Positions 25,203-42,613 of a stretch of DNA of 64,000 nucleotides are shown here, in pieces. The stretch covers positions 1,896-65,895 of the forward strand of contig JAHJAM010000023.1 of assembly GCA_018814025.1 (NCBI GenBank), read 5' to 3'. The translations under genes and the position numbers were made by a program. Numbering within the stretch: the stretch's first letter is position 1; every line of letters begins with the position of its first letter. A model generated the notes under the pieces. That model did no database searches. It worked only from the letters and a program-made list of their open reading frames with translations, and was not told the origin of the DNA. The DNA comes from Patescibacteria group bacterium. GTDB taxonomy: Bacteria; Patescibacteriota; Patescibacteriia; UBA9934; GWF2-40-263.

Positions 25203-26336
25203 TTATTGTTTGATCGGCATCACGATGTAAAGATATTCCTTTTTTTCTTCTTTTGGGGTGATCAAACACGGATTTGACGGATCGATCATTTCAAATAATA
25301 TCTTCTCAGTTGAAATTGCATTCAGTCCATCCAGCAAATATCGATAATTAACCGTCACATTATTAACTTCTCCGGTAATTTCCGCCGTGCAAGTCGCCAC
25401 ATTCTCACCCCGGTTATTGTCCACGGCTCTGATTGAAAATTCGCCTTTACTTGGCGCAATTTCCAAGGTCACATCAAAAAGTCCGGTCTTTGAAAACAAA
25501 CTTGCCGCTTTCACCGCTTTAATAAAATCTTCACGGTCAATCATCACGGAAGTTCGATATTGTTTAGGGATAATTTGCCGATAATCAGGGTAATTTCCTT
25601 CAATTATACGTGAAATTAACTCCACCGAACCATAATTGAATACCACCTGATTTTCGGACAAATTCATCACTATCTCGCCTGGTGCATCAACCGAATCCTT
25701 GAAAACCGAAAGAATGCGGCCAACCTCAGATAAAGCTTTGGTTGGTACGATCACTTCCATATCCTCAAGCGGCGCCTTGGCTAATGGCAAGGTTCGCTCG
25801 GCCAGTCGATAAGAATCAGTCGCCGCCAAAACAACCTGTCCCCCGCCGTCTTTTGTAAACCGCATAAAAACCCCGGTTAACTCCGGTCGAGATTCATTCA
25901 AAGCCGAAGCGAATAAAACTTGCGTCAAAGCCCGGCGAAAATCATCTGCTTTAATTTGATATGACTTACTCGCTTCGACGGTTGGGATCAAAGGAAACTC
26001 TGAGGCTGATACGCCATTAATCCGCGTCTTATGATTTCCACACACCACCCTCATACCGTCATCCTTAATTTCCATCTCCACAGTTTCATTCGGCAGCAAA
26101 GAAACATAGTCTAAAAATAATTTTGTCGGAGTCGTATATTCGCCCGGCGCATCAACCTTTCCCCTTACGCTGCAGCTGATCGCCGTTTCCAAATTGGTCG
26201 TAGTAAAACGAATATTTCCGCCTTCTGCCTTGATCAAAACATTCTGCAACACCGGTAAATTAACTCCTTTGTTAATTAAATGTCCGGTAACCGACAAACC
26301 TTGATATAAGTTTTCCCTTGTACAAGAAATTTTCAT
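25203..26336 (-). CDS. dnaN: DNA polymerase III beta clamp
   Basis: RPELTGV, AATDSYRLAE, IEGNYPDY, YIVMPI; follows dnaA. Confidence 0.97.
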   Translation of the reverse strand: MKISCTRENLYQGLSVTGHLINKGVNLPVLQNVLIKAEGGNIRFTTTNLETAISCSVRGKVDAPGEYTTPTKLFLDYVSLLPNETVEMEIKDDGMRVVCGNHKTRINGVSASEFPLIPTVEASKSYQIKADDFRRALTQVLFASALNESRPELTGVFMRFTKDGGGQVVLAATDSYRLAERTLPLAKAPLEDMEVIVPTKALSEVGRILSVFKDSVDAPGEIVMNLSENQVVFNYGSVELISRIIEGNYPDYRQIIPKQYRTSVMIDREDFIKAVKAASLFSKTGLFDVTLEIAPSKGEFSIRAVDNNRGENVATCTAEITGEVNNVTVNYRYLLDGLNAISTEKILFEMIDPSNPCLITPKEEKKEYLYIVMPIKQ

Positions 26337-26612
26337 ATTCTTTCCTCCCGCTTTTTATTATAATTTTTTCTTTATATATAACAGTAGTAACAATAAGGTA
26401 TGTGGATGGTTTGGATAACTCATTTTAACCCTGATTTTACAGGCTGTTCTTATTACGCAGATGTGCGCTTCTTTGTGTGGTGAACCTGCTTAGAATGAGG
26501 ATACTTTACTCTTTGATTCTGAACACAATATTTATCTACAGTTACCAAGTGTTTGTTCCACAGCTTTATTCACAATCGAGAGTTCACTTTTCCACAGTCT
26601 GATCACAGAAAT
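26337..26612. other. oriC-like region
   Basis: Several DnaA-box variants (TTATTCACA, TTTTCCACA, TTATCTACA); minus strand TTATCCAAAC-CATCCACA then trinucleotide repeats TTA-TTG-TTA-CTA-CTG-TTA and an AT tract, resembling the B. subtilis box/DnaA-trio/AT layout. Confidence 0.7.
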
Positions 26613-28013
26613 TTAAAGTGCGTACAGTCTTTGCTTAATCAATTCAATATCATGTCTTAATTTTTCATCTTCCTCCAAGCAGCCATTAATTTTTTCATAA
26701 GCGTGCATGGCTGTGGTGTGGTCGCGACCGCCTAATTCTGTGCCAATCGTCGGATAACTCATCTTCATTTCTTCCCGCATAATGAACATGGTAATTTGAC
26801 GGGGAAAGGCCAAACGTTTTTCTCGACTCTTGCCTAAAAGGTCTTCGATTTCCAGGTCAAAATATCCGGCCATGGTTTGGATTAGCTGTCGCGGGGTTAC
26901 ATTCTTTCGTGTTCCGGTCGGCTTAAAGCTGGCCATGATCGGTTGCACGGTATCAACGGTCGGTGAAATATTTTTAAATTGATGGAAAGCGATAATTTTA
27001 TTCAATGCCCCTTCCAATTCTCGCACATTGCTTTGGACGGCCATGGCCATGCAATGGAGTACTTCATTAGCCAGTGGATAACCTTTTTCTTGGCACTTCG
27101 TTTCCAGGATGGCCACGCGCGTTTCAAAGTCCGGACTGCCGACATCGGCCATCATCCCGCACTCAAATCGGGAAATTAACCTGCTTTCCAGGGTTGGGAT
27201 GGCTTTTGGTGGTCGGTCAGAAGTGATCACAATCTGTCTGTTTGACTGATATAATTGGTTAAAAGTGTGAAAAAACTCCTCTTGAGTGCCTTCTTTTCCG
27301 GTAATAAATTGGATATCGTCAACCAGTAGCAAATCGACATTTCTATAGCGATTTTTGAATTCTCGAGCCTGTCCGCCCCGAACCGCATTAATAAAGTCAT
27401 TGGTAAAACGCTCGCAAGTCACGTATAAAACTTTAACATTTGGGTTTTTATTGATCATTTCGTTCCCGATCGACTGCAACAGGTGAGTTTTTCCCAGACC
27501 CACCCCACCATAGATAAATAATGGGTTATAAACTCCTCCTGGCTGGGCCGCCACCGCCTGAGCTGCCGCATGAGCCAGCTCATTTTGTTTACCCACCACG
27601 AAATTTACAAAATTATATTTGCTGTTTACGGTTAAATCTCCTGAAACTTGTGATTGGCTGCCGGCTGATGGCATTGGTTGATGAGTCTGTAAGTTTTCTT
27701 GGTCGGGGATGGACTCTGGCCTATTCCCCATCACCTCTGCAGGGATCATTTGTGGTGATGCTGGGCGATTTTCAACTCGGTAGACGATCGTCTTAGTCCG
27801 GTTTCCGGTCAGATTCTGCAACGAAGTCATGATCTCTTTGTGATACTTCTTCTCAAGCCAGGCTTTGGTAAAAAGATTAGGTACGCCAATTATGACCTCC
27901 TCCTCCCGGCAAGATGCGATAAAAGTATTTTTAAACCAAGTGGTGAAATTAGCTTTGCTTAAAGAGAGTTCAAGCTCTCCCAAGACCGCCTGCCACAACT
28001 CATTTGAATCCAT
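26613..28013 (-). CDS. dnaA: Chromosomal replication initiator DnaA
   Basis: YNPLFIYGGVGLGKTHL, LLVDDIQF, NVRELEGAL, GGRDHTT. Confidence 0.98.
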   Translation of the reverse strand: MDSNELWQAVLGELELSLSKANFTTWFKNTFIASCREEEVIIGVPNLFTKAWLEKKYHKEIMTSLQNLTGNRTKTIVYRVENRPASPQMIPAEVMGNRPESIPDQENLQTHQPMPSAGSQSQVSGDLTVNSKYNFVNFVVGKQNELAHAAAQAVAAQPGGVYNPLFIYGGVGLGKTHLLQSIGNEMINKNPNVKVLYVTCERFTNDFINAVRGGQAREFKNRYRNVDLLLVDDIQFITGKEGTQEEFFHTFNQLYQSNRQIVITSDRPPKAIPTLESRLISRFECGMMADVGSPDFETRVAILETKCQEKGYPLANEVLHCMAMAVQSNVRELEGALNKIIAFHQFKNISPTVDTVQPIMASFKPTGTRKNVTPRQLIQTMAGYFDLEIEDLLGKSREKRLAFPRQITMFIMREEMKMSYPTIGTELGGRDHTTAMHAYEKINGCLEEDEKLRHDIELIKQRLYAL

Positions 28014-39853: not shown

Positions 39854-40351
39854 TCAAATATCATCCTCACCCGACTTCAGTTGTTTTCGTTGAGTCAAGA
39901 TCAATAACCCAGCCACACCGACCAAAATCACCACATCAGAAAAATTTATGGCCAAACGACTGAAAAACATAATGTAATCAACCGTGAACCCGTAAACCAG
40001 ACGATCATACATGTTTCCGGCGGCTCCGATAATGATAATCATCGCCATCAATGAGACTTTTGGTCGGTTTCCCCAATTCCGAATGATGATTTGGATCAAG
40101 AAAAAGCCGATAACCAATGAAATCAAGACAATCACCCACATTTTAAAAGGAATATCAAAGGCAATTCCGAAATTTTTGTGAATTGCCAAGGAAAAAAAAG
40201 CCGGATCAACAAGACTCCCCTCGTCGGGGAGTATTTTTAAGGCAGTGAATTTTACAATTTCATCGGCAATAACAATTAATACAAATATTATCGCATATCC
40301 GATGATGTTGATTTTCTTGATTAAACCTCTTGTGTCAAGGTTTTCTTGCAT
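39854..40351 (-). CDS. lspA: Lipoprotein signal peptidase (start uncertain, overlaps upstream gene)
   Basis: NFGIAF, GAAGNMYDR..YG..VDY, INFSD. Confidence 0.88.
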   Translation of the reverse strand: MQENLDTRGLIKKINIIGYAIIFVLIVIADEIVKFTALKILPDEGSLVDPAFFSLAIHKNFGIAFDIPFKMWVIVLISLVIGFFLIQIIIRNWGNRPKVSLMAMIIIIGAAGNMYDRLVYGFTVDYIMFFSRLAINFSDVVILVGVAGLLILTQRKQLKSGEDDI

Positions 40352-40695
40352 TTGATGCATGAACTTGAAGTCGGACGAGCTAACAGGCGCTTTTCGTCAA
40401 TTTCTTGTTTACAGTACTTACAAATACCGTAAACCCCCTTCTCGAGCTGTCTAAGGGCTGATTCTACGTCTCTTAAGGCCTTTTCTAGCTCACTCTCCAA
40501 TGAAAGATTATTGCTAAATTGAGCTACTTCCGAGGCATTCTCATCTTCCTTATCACCCAGATTAGGAAAATCTGCATTAAAATCAGTTTCTGCTGCTTGG
40601 GGGTTTCGATGTGCGAATTTAGATAATTCTTGTTCTAAACGTGTTTTTTCCTCTGACAACCGCTCTTTCATTTGTTCTACAATTTGCTTATCCAT
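40321..40695 (-). CDS. DksA/TraR C4-type zinc-finger protein
   Basis: Coiled coil then YGICKYC..I..KRL.ARP...CIKC. Confidence 0.9.
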   Translation of the reverse strand: MDKQIVEQMKERLSEEKTRLEQELSKFAHRNPQAAETDFNADFPNLGDKEDENASEVAQFSNNLSLESELEKALRDVESALRQLEKGVYGICKYCKQEIDEKRLLARPTSSSCIKCKKTLTQEV

Positions 40696-40778
40696 AAAAT
40701 AAGAAATTACTTATTGTTTCCTTATCTTAGCATCGAATTACTTACAAGGCAATAGTTCGACAGGACAATTTAACAAAT

Positions 40779-41156
40779 AAAAAAGGGTCTCATAGCCCCT
40801 AAATGAAGATTTTGTGGGTGAGACCCTAAGCTGTAGATCGTGGCTTGAGACATGCCGGGTTCTGGGCTCGAGGGAACCTCACAACTCGACATGCCTTTTG
40901 GCACATGCGATCTTGGCGTCAACTCAGCCCCTCTACCATTCAATGGTCGTCTTCGCGGATGCTCATCTGGCGAGCAACTTTTGTGCGAGCTGACCGAGGA
41001 TGGTGATTCTGTTTTATTTCTATTTTATGGTGAACAGTAAAGAGGTGGGGTATTTTCCGAAAGTCATGATGAACAGGTGTGGGGGACCTATTGCCGGACT
41101 AACCGGACACCTTCGGAAAACTTCCCAGAGTTGGGAACATGGAAAGAACGTTTACT
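40779..41156 (-). ncRNA. Candidate structured non-coding RNA of unknown family
   Basis: TTGACA-17-TATTAT promoter upstream, hairpin plus U-tract downstream, many stems, no long or SD-led ORF. Confidence 0.5.
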
Positions 41157-41161
41157 CATCT

Positions 41162-41190
41162 ATAATATCATGTTGAACACTAAATGTCAA
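41162..41190 (-). promoter_or_regulatory. Near-consensus sigma70 promoter
   Basis: TTGACA TTTAGTGTTCAACATGA TATTAT. Confidence 0.75.
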
Positions 41191-41272: not shown

Positions 41273-41312
41273 TTATCCACAATTATGTCGAATTATATAC
41301 AAGTTATCCACA
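41273..41312 (+). promoter_or_regulatory. DnaA-box cluster
   Basis: TTATCCACA (41273), TTATATACA (41293), TTATCCACA (41304), same orientation. Confidence 0.7.
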
Positions 41313-41313
41313 A

Positions 41314-42591
41314 TCAATTACATAGCAAAATCTTTGTATCAAATAGGCTATTTCGAATACCCACAGAGGAATAGGCCTCGGTGATCGGAAAAGCAATTTG
41401 CCAGTTTCGTGTATGCAAATTATTAGCCGACAGACCAACCCAGGAATCAACATTCATAAACCCACTCGTTCCACCACAAGGTGCCTCACGAAGAGAATTA
41501 TCCTCGCCGGTTAGCCAGAATCGAACTAACGCTTCTCGATTGCTGATTACCAACCGGCCACGATCATATCCAGAAAATAGATAATGTGTTGGATCAACCA
41601 AAACTCGCGACCATGGCACACCAGCTATCACCAATTCCTCAACCGATATTGCAGCCGGGTCAACCGAAATCTCTTGAGCTGTTGAATTATCAGACAAGAC
41701 GAAATCAGATATTCGCGGAGAATGTAAAGCTGCTGATAATTTGATTAGTTTCTTATGCATTTCCGGGTCATTTTCATCCTGATAACTGCTTATCAAGAAT
41801 CCAACCCCGTCTTCATCGTTTGAAAGCATTACAAGCTCAATGTTTTGTTCGAAAATACGTGTAAAACTAGCTAAATTTTGATCAAATTCTTCTATTAGTG
41901 GATAAACAGGCAAATTTGAATGAACTGAGAAGTTTGTCAAGAATGGCGTTGACATAATTCCAAACACGTCTTCAGGTATTGTTTTCCAAGGCAGTGCTGT
42001 CAAATCCGATTTTGGCAAAGAAATTTCCAAGTTATTTCCATCCCCATATATGTCACCTCTAATTAGAGGGTCATTCAATATCAATATCTGACCCAACAGC
42101 TTTGTTTCAAACATAAATGGAATATTCGGCAGGTTCCACCCCCTTTTGAGTTGAGTTGTGGAAAAAGGCATGATCTGATTGGCAAGAAAAAGATGATTTG
42201 GTCCGATTTCCCGCACGACAATCCCCTGAGCATCCAGTTCATCCCGGGGTAAGGTGTTTAATGACCCTCGAATTCCGACTGACATATTTCCGTCATTTTG
42301 GATATATATTGCCACTTCGCCCTGAGCAAATCCCACCAAGTCCGATATGGTTAAAGATTTTCCGGTTATTAGGGGAATATTGAGCAGGTTCTTCTCAATA
42401 ATAGGCCAAGTATTTCGATCCGGTGCCAGACGAATAATGGCTATGGTTCCATCCGGGACAATCTCGGAGATTGTTTGTCGAGAAAACCACCAAAAAGAGG
42501 CACAGTACGCCAACACTGTTAGCAATAGTGCCAAAAGCAATATCCAAACAACCCGCCGTGAACGGCGGGTTGTTTTATACGAATTACGCAT
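41314..42591 (-). CDS. Hypothetical membrane-anchored exported protein
   Basis: Basic N-region plus TM anchor; AT-richer than neighbours; start uncertain. Confidence 0.7.
   Translation of the reverse strand: MRNSYKTTRRSRRVVWILLLALLLTVLAYCASFWWFSRQTISEIVPDGTIAIIRLAPDRNTWPIIEKNLLNIPLITGKSLTISDLVGFAQGEVAIYIQNDGNMSVGIRGSLNTLPRDELDAQGIVVREIGPNHLFLANQIMPFSTTQLKRGWNLPNIPFMFETKLLGQILILNDPLIRGDIYGDGNNLEISLPKSDLTALPWKTIPEDVFGIMSTPFLTNFSVHSNLPVYPLIEEFDQNLASFTRIFEQNIELVMLSNDEDGVGFLISSYQDENDPEMHKKLIKLSAALHSPRISDFVLSDNSTAQEISVDPAAISVEELVIAGVPWSRVLVDPTHYLFSGYDRGRLVISNREALVRFWLTGEDNSLREAPCGGTSGFMNVDSWVGLSANNLHTRNWQIAFPITEAYSSVGIRNSLFDTKILLCN
42546..42576 (-). terminator. pnp terminator
   Basis: AACAACCCGCCG-TTCA-CGGCGGGTTGTT on the minus strand, then T-rich. 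Confidence 0.7.
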
Positions 42592-42613
42592 TGGAATATT
42601 CAGCTTTTGCACA

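Follow-up and report, generated by a model that had tools for sequence, protein, structure and literature searches.

The described RNAs most comparable to the one reported here are those that bind bacterial RNA polymerase. Ms1 of the Actinobacteria, which binds the polymerase core, is ~300 nt long and combines a central bubble with extra 5′ and 3′ hairpins (PMC9130861). CoRP of Corynebacterium is a 516-nt polymerase-binding RNA from a lineage that has neither 6S nor Ms1, and its description proposes one polymerase-binding RNA of such kind per species (PMC11077062). The RNA that we describe lies on the minus strand of a 64,000-nt stretch of DNA (the window) from a Patescibacteria genome (978 kb, 62 contigs, 98.85% complete). 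It shares with Ms1 a predicted stand-alone transcription, a similar plan by a loose criterion (300–500 nt, a bubble and end hairpins) and a lineage without detectable 6S; unlike Ms1, it belongs to another phylum, has no Rfam match, sits among pnp, a gene for a ~430-aa protein, dksA and lspA, has a lopsided bubble with a fixed A-rich motif and DnaA boxes upstream, and its polymerase binding is only predicted. With 6S (RF00013) it has in common a conserved helix-bubble-helix core, a single copy and a strong housekeeping promoter, but it is about twice as long and multi-domain, with a variable terminal stem and no conserved −10-like strand. Like CoRP, it is large, lineage-specific and structured and escapes 6S and Ms1 searches; CoRP, however, is 516 nt long, lies between tRNA genes and is confined to one genus, differences taken from its description.

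OLE, GOLLD, ROOL and the raiA motif are further large, covarying, multi-domain bacterial RNAs, and their function is unknown. The present RNA differs from them: its conserved bases are concentrated in a single helix and some loops, neither a conserved pseudoknot nor an Rfam match was found, and its gene lies in a reduced genome, within a chromosomal neighbourhood that is itself conserved. We found no description of it in the literature on the RNA or its lineage, in which preprint supplements could hold an unnamed cluster and of which subscription papers lay outside the scope. Term searches of the main text of two 2026 language-model ncRNA-mining preprints gave a different Patescibacteriota repeat-array cluster in one case and nothing in the other, and PMC8172020, in the part covered, discusses diverged CPR RNase P RNAs and does not mention 6S RNA. 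The RNA family appears new, and its mode of action is probably, though not certainly, a known one.

Homologs, coding capacity and known RNA identities

A DNA search of 61 relatives returned short collinear matches to the RNA, and a profile made from these identified 19 carriers besides the genome under study. Eighty loci were gathered through dksA, so the association between RNA and dksA is inflated in our counts. The anatomy counts below cover 105 distinct homologs, with five badly anchored loci left out. Two partial covariance models were used: R1, and R2, a model of the core built on a more diverse set of 45 sequences. R1 gave a plus-strand match in 67 of the 80 dksA-gathered loci, a set that includes about a dozen training genomes; four of the 13 misses are loci with short flanks, and in seven of the other nine inspection by eye reveals a strong promoter together with a U-tailed hairpin. 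Among 151 genomes of the class, R1 matched 31 (among the matches listed besides the RNA's own genome, two of 29 were false on inspection) and R2 matched 68, training genomes included; nine of the new R2 matches, all above the weakest, were inspected and all were real. The RNA is present once in its own genome, and 64 of the 68 R2-positive class genomes have one match each.

Beyond the class, R2 matched 19 of 151 genomes in a phylum-wide sample. Its matches outside the class comprise 17 loci, of which about seven look real by eye, with P2 and the A-rich strand and in several cases dksA downstream, the others being coding sequence or chance matches. In 64 further dksA loci of the phylum sample, inspection by eye of the upstream sequence revealed at least about 15 more divergent copies. 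Many other lineages have coding sequence directly before dksA and no RNA at that spot; these lineages may have it at another site or lack it. The observed range, a lower bound, is across the class and patchy in other classes of the phylum. Seven loci (L113, L116, L117, L121, L126, L127 and L286), several named Magasanikbacteria, have a promoter and a terminal hairpin upstream of dksA with a body too diverged for the models, and are possibly a distinct subtype. One pattern scan of viral contigs gave four matches, none of them with the fold or promoter of the RNA.

The locus had been read as ORF-less, and this holds: the ORF list contains no minus-strand ORF of at least 60 aa there, and the only one of that length is on the plus strand (62 codons, 40852–41040). 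The longest sense ATG ORF per homolog has a median of 38 aa and reaches 60 aa in 16 of 105. No reading frame is conserved, as the P2 span modulo 3 is distributed 28/24/38 across homologs and the offset of the A-rich element from P2 is likewise spread over all three frames (33/31/23), and no start or stop codon is conserved across homologs. A protein-coding gene or pseudogene is thus out, as is an Asn-Lys-Asn-Lys peptide concealed in the A-rich strand, whose frame drifts among homologs. The RNA is stably folded: the 382-nt stretch has a folding energy of −126.1 kcal/mol, where shuffles average −99.7 (z = −4.35; 0 of 100 shuffles equally stable), and z lies below −2 in 33 of 35 homologs folded, a one-third sample with 12 shuffles each. 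Its length, a noisy measure that rests on an automatic end call in 62 of the 105 homologs, has a median of ~360 nt and a range of 247–538. This is a conserved, structured RNA gene without coding conservation in Patescibacteria. The sequence-only reading had proposed an undescribed multi-domain ncRNA upstream of a DksA-like gene; homologs with compensatory changes, the lack of an Rfam family and the lack of a frame all bear this out, and every motif it named lies where it had been placed on the minus strand.

Table 1. Positions of the RNA gene, its parts and its surroundings in the window.
Feature	Position	Strand	Remark
RNA gene, ~375 nt	40779..41156	(-)	ends inferred from promoter and terminator; transcript predicted
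Perfect DnaA box, distal	41304..41312	(+)	
Perfect DnaA box, proximal	41273..41281	(+)	
Sigma-70 promoter, TTGACA-17-TATTAT, TG before −10	41162..41190	(-)	11/12 consensus matches
BoxA-like leader motif GUUCUUU	41143..41150	(-)	
P0, optional 5′ hairpin	41122..41137	(-)	competes with P1 base for the same G run
P1, 5′ domain, long stem around variable hairpins	41048..41126	(-)	helices 1–2; 91–98% of cells paired
CCCCAC loop in P1 hairpin	41085-41079	(-)	
P2, 5′ strand	41032..41045	(-)	most conserved helix; invariant A-U, C-G and U-G pairs
Single-stranded A-rich element	41012..41026	(-)	consensus AAAAYAAAAAYAAAA
P3, GGU/ACC-closed hairpin, variable length	40945..40995	(-)	helix 4; 97% of cells paired
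P2, 3′ strand	40928..40941	(-)	pairs with 41045-41032
3′ domain	40835..40927	(-)	holds conserved hairpin P5
P5, conserved hairpin	40895-40849	(-)	GAGU/ACCC core in the RNA's own family; two-sided changes in 14/16 pairs
Long terminal hairpin, AU-rich loop, then U run	40779..40827	(-)	intrinsic-terminator-like
Promoter-like site for dksA-like gene, TTGCCT-17-TAAGAT, TG before −10	40724..40752	(-)	read from sequence
DksA/TraR C4 zinc-finger gene, usual downstream neighbour	40321..40695	(-)	PF01258, E = 9e-7 (Pfam only)
~430-aa protein gene, usual upstream neighbour	41314..42612	(-)	synteny

Searches against known families place the RNA in none of them. At the gathering score Rfam gave only six tRNAs in the window and no match at the locus, be it RNase P, tmRNA, 6S or another family; at E up to 10 the surroundings gave six chance-level matches, all far below gathering, and no Rfam family recurs among 20 homolog loci at E up to 5. 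The RNA resembles type A RNase P RNA in size, and its AGAACCCGGC stretch recalls conserved region V; however, this stretch forms local pairs, there is no 5′ catalytic motif, and the true gene lies on another contig (C10:16476–16972, minus strand, 123 bits), with no RF00010 match at the locus. RNase P RNA is thus out, and the loose likeness to the P4 strands suggested earlier proved a false lead: the AGUCCGG stretch lies within a variable insert, AGAACCC pairs locally in hairpin P5, and the GAGGAAAGUC region and P4 pseudoknot of RNase P are absent from the RNA alignment. The genome's RNase P RNA match spans 497 nt against a 367-position model, so its helices are extended.

That canonical rnpB and ssrA should be found elsewhere was true of the former only, since neither tmRNA nor SmpB gave a match in this 98.85%-complete assembly, through either a missing contig or, possibly, a true loss of trans-translation. 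This gap raised a diverged or permuted tmRNA as a candidate, which is out: canonical tmRNA is present away from the RNA locus in 51 of the 61 relatives, including 16 of the 19 RNA carriers, and the RNA has no tRNA-like ends, no Rfam or ARAGORN match and no tag frame. One relative has two tmRNA matches (L044, G009:C84:3225–3697, and another on G009:C41), of which the top-scoring is unlike its kin and possibly mobile or a contaminant. A 6S match was obtained in none of 41 relatives, as against 5 of 14 control genomes, an absence by Rfam miss that may be divergence instead; the RNA itself is not 6S, being multi-domain and ~360 nt long with a lopsided bubble, not a single rod of 180–200 nt, and having no RF00013 match. 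SRP RNA is likewise out, with no Rfam match and no SRP54-family partner (PF00448) in the 98.85%-complete genome.

Transcription signals and gene neighbourhood

The promoter that had been read as TTGACA-17-TATTAT is where it was placed (TTGACA at 41190, TATTAT at 41167–41162) and has an extended −10; transcription is inferred to start at ~41155–41156. A promoter score of at least 10 of 13 is reached in 100 of 105 homologs, 84 with TG before the −10. The boxA-like claim also stands, with CGTTCTTT at 41150 on the minus strand, and such a motif follows the start in 92 of 105 homologs (by a broad pattern picked after inspection of the data). It is not exclusive to the RNA gene, as it also lies behind 9 of 153 promoter-like sites of the genome, and the 16S promoter has a boxA-like variant downstream; 21 of 90 homologs have a second such motif downstream of P2. 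The genome encodes NusB; Rho was not found in it. At the other end, the proposed terminator has its arms at 40827 and 40792 with the T run after them, and in homologs the terminal hairpin is 40–60 nt long with an AU-rich loop and a U tail. Promoter and terminator together predict stand-alone transcription of the RNA.

Among the 100 homologs with full flank, 92 have at least one perfect DnaA box within 200 bp upstream of the promoter, and the whole 978-kb genome contains 26 such boxes. In the window, dnaA sits 13 kb from the RNA locus (dnaA and dnaN were identified from their translations). These boxes and the proximity of dnaA would fit a DNA element of replication control, that is, a DnaA-titrating or origin-like site with the RNA as primer or R-loop. 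We nevertheless regard this as the least probable of the explanations considered, given just two perfect boxes at the locus, the RNA-level covariation and terminator, which favour a free RNA, and two relaxed boxes elsewhere that mark a more usual origin position. The latter (26566 and 26588; 26566–26596) lie between dnaA (26613–28013, minus strand) and dnaN (25203–26336, minus strand), a likely origin position, 13–15 kb from the RNA locus. Elsewhere in the genome (C11:1687–1815), another strong promoter has three relaxed DnaA boxes upstream and a hairpin-rich stretch downstream, and is possibly a second DnaA-controlled leader or small RNA.

Downstream, a sense dksA-like gene lies within 800 nt in 94 of 105 homologs, followed here by lspA (signal peptidase II); the closest named relatives of this DksA are from Ca. 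Uhrbacteria. Such constancy, together with the alternative pairing of P0 and P1, which could serve as a switch, might suggest a cis-acting leader or attenuator of dksA-lspA in which a ligand or protein controls terminator read-through. Against this, 11 of the 105 homologs have no sense dksA within 800 nt (two have it inverted, one has it 2.3 kb away and one has lspA directly after the RNA), dksA has its own promoter-like site past the terminator, and no conserved antiterminator was seen. A promoter-like site between terminator and dksA occurs in 90 of 94 homologs, by a lenient pattern with no background control. A riboswitch or cis leader would always precede the same co-oriented gene with no separate promoter; these exceptions and the promoter-like site are at odds with both, so a cis role for dksA is very unlikely. 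In one locus, L111, the RNA is intact and about 2 kb of other sequence separates it from dksA. Upstream, the ~430-aa protein gave no Pfam match; it combines a basic motif, conserved at the N-terminus, with a hydrophobic stretch near that end; embedding look-alikes at 0.94–0.97 (DUF3352/DUF2138-like) are a lead only. The pnp gene is one gene upstream of the RNA here and immediately adjacent to it in several homologs.

Covarying fold and single-stranded motifs

Covariation was assessed in a 16-sequence alignment, in which 54 pairs were scored for pairing and two-sided changes. The pairs are 93% paired, with two-sided changes in 30 of the 54; no measure was attained by any of 500 shuffles, and shifted partners gave 40–54% pairing, controls that overstate the result because the structure was derived from the same, related sequences. 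The homolog search and covariation analysis that the sequence-only reading had called for thus yielded compensatory changes. From 5′ to 3′ the RNA consists of an optional P0, P1 with variable inserts, the 5′ strand of P2, an optional small hairpin, the A-rich strand, P3, a linker of 3–4 nt, the P2 3′ strand, a variable 3′ stem domain and the terminal hairpin. The core plan is a helix-bubble-helix with single-stranded AAAAYAAAAAYAAAA, flanked by 5′ and 3′ stem domains, and the bubble is lopsided (~20–35 nt against 3–4 nt). The 14 pairs of P2 are paired in 92.7% of cells, with two-sided changes in nine, and three pairs are invariant in 45 of 45 sequences. P3 shows two-sided changes in five of nine pairs and varies from ~9 to more than 20 pairs among homologs. 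In P5 the arms are 40895–40887 with 40857–40849. At least seven P0 pairs are possible in 25 of 45 family-type homologs, a count made with no shuffle control.

The fold drawn earlier was right in one stem and in the unpaired linker, but about half of its inner helices need correction. Covariation upholds the stem of TTTTCCGAA with TTCGGAAAA. The AGGT/ACCT hairpin finds partial support, in that a matching stem covaries around the CCCCAC loop, as judged by eye only. The TCAGCTC/GGGCTGA, ACCATT/AATGGT, TGCC/GGCA and TCGAG/CTCGA helices are not conserved pairings as drawn; instead, 41045–41032 pairs with 40941–40928, GGTC with GACC, and the P5 arms with each other. A conserved pseudoknot between CCCCAC and GUGGG was not found among homologs.

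The A-rich linker, seen at 41028 on the minus strand and proposed to be unpaired, is unpaired by covariation as well, with a mean unpaired probability of 0.85 in 24 folded homologs. Within two mismatches, AAAAYAAAAAYAAAA is present in 90 of 105 homologs, and it is missing even at three mismatches in about nine. Its A4-Y-A5-Y-A4 register, with a 6-nt period, is strict across homologs, and variation is between C and U with some A/G. By eye, some homologs have second copies of the element and distant ones have recurrent CAAAAUA loops. A CCCCAC-like motif is found in 53 of 105 homologs, on a stem of its own that covaries by eye. In four homologs (L093, L095, L098 and L137) the A-rich strand is replaced by a hairpin with a G-run loop complementary to the CCC(C)AC loop, a possible kissing-loop variant.

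KH domains favour A/C-rich single strands. A rigid frame that presents several A/C-rich loops as sites could make the RNA a sponge or scaffold for a KH/S1 single-strand RNA-binding protein or nuclease, the candidates being PNPase, RNase Y or J, NusA, KhpA/B and ribosomal protein S1. The strict register, the repeated motif and CAAAAUA loops in some homologs, the CCCCAC loop atop a freely covarying stem in about half of them, and the position of pnp all speak for this, and it accounts better than polymerase binding for A/C-rich loops that are fixed and sometimes repeated. Yet the named proteins are candidates only, A/C-rich sequence is the least structured RNA anyway, the adjacency of pnp may be plain synteny, and most invariant bases lie in helix P2, not in loops; on balance we consider such a sponge rather unlikely.

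The 6-nt period of the element would also fit an mRNA mimic that stores or titrates ribosomes or 30S subunits by binding them, its A-rich strand lying in the mRNA channel, and in a crude set of 331 ORFs the genome's start regions are A/U-rich without G enrichment at the Shine-Dalgarno position. However, the offset from P2 falls in all three frames, no start or stop codon is conserved, and of 57 occurrences of the motif outside the RNA, just one has a start codon 0–12 nt downstream. Mimicry of a start region is therefore unsupported, and ribosome binding as a whole is quite unlikely. In the same crude ORF set, T stands at −1 in 74% of starts, and the 16S 3′ end retains the anti-SD.

RsaE and RoxS use C-rich loops to pair with G-rich targets. 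By analogy, the CCCCAC loop could recognise G-rich targets by base pairing and the A-rich strand could do the same for U-rich targets, and the observed variation of the A-rich element would be tolerable with a U/G-rich target; the G-rich loops of the four homologs that lack the A-rich strand would also suit a pairing role. But no target was found in the genome, where the best blastn matches are at chance level, and the size and deep structural conservation are atypical of a pairing sRNA. We judge this to be a shade less probable even than the cis leader.

RNA polymerase as the candidate partner

Patescibacteria have lost much of their regulatory machinery. By analogy, and by elimination, other housekeeping RNA roles being filled or void, the RNA would most likely work by binding RNA polymerase, like 6S, Ms1 and CoRP, a reading that we prefer to any other but hold tentatively. 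In its favour are the stand-alone arrangement of the gene, which has a promoter of its own in 100 of 105 homologs and a U-tailed hairpin, the single copy, the presence elsewhere of RNase P RNA and, in 16 of the 19 carriers, of canonical tmRNA, and the lack of a match to an SRP54-family protein in the genome and to 6S in the 41 relatives. Ms1, which the RNA resembles in size and plan, and CoRP are precedents for unrelated RNAs taking this role where 6S is lacking. The DksA/TraR family binds RNA polymerase, and we count the neighbouring gene towards this reading as well. In such a mechanism, the strong sigma-70 promoter would make the RNA abundant, the DnaA boxes upstream would make its output depend on the replication state, and the boxA-like motif would recruit Nus factors as the RNA folds. 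The helix-bubble-helix core with its A-rich strand would then mimic an opened promoter or nascent RNA, and this mimicry would park polymerase in non-growing, host-dependent cells.

Parts of the structure argue against an exact counterpart of 6S. The bubble is very lopsided for a mimic of an open promoter, and the length of P3 is variable, so that the fixed spacing needed for the sigma-70 holoenzyme is not kept; moreover, no −10-like sequence is conserved on the short bubble strand. Given these three features, a sigma-free, core-binding mode would fit better than the 6S mode. The fixed A-rich register, the second copies and the CCCCAC loop bear a closer resemblance to the binding sites of a sequence-specific RNA-binding protein. 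A different idea, which we think less likely than not, is that the RNA represents a new class of Patescibacteria housekeeping RNP. It would serve as a scaffold under DnaA control, with a dedicated partner that reads the A-rich strand, and would link the replication state with the shutdown of transcription or translation off the host, by a mechanism unlike that of 6S, Ms1 or any catalogued RNA.

That the RNA, its strong promoter and its DnaA boxes are kept across the class and beyond argues for a core function. If the RNA binds polymerase, it would take the place left vacant by 6S in one of the largest lineages of bacteria and constitute a fourth unrelated type of polymerase-binding RNA, and the question of episymbiont dormancy would become directly testable. 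If its function is another, it would be a new class of large ncRNA. Either way, the alignment and models provide a new Rfam family and a clear structural target.
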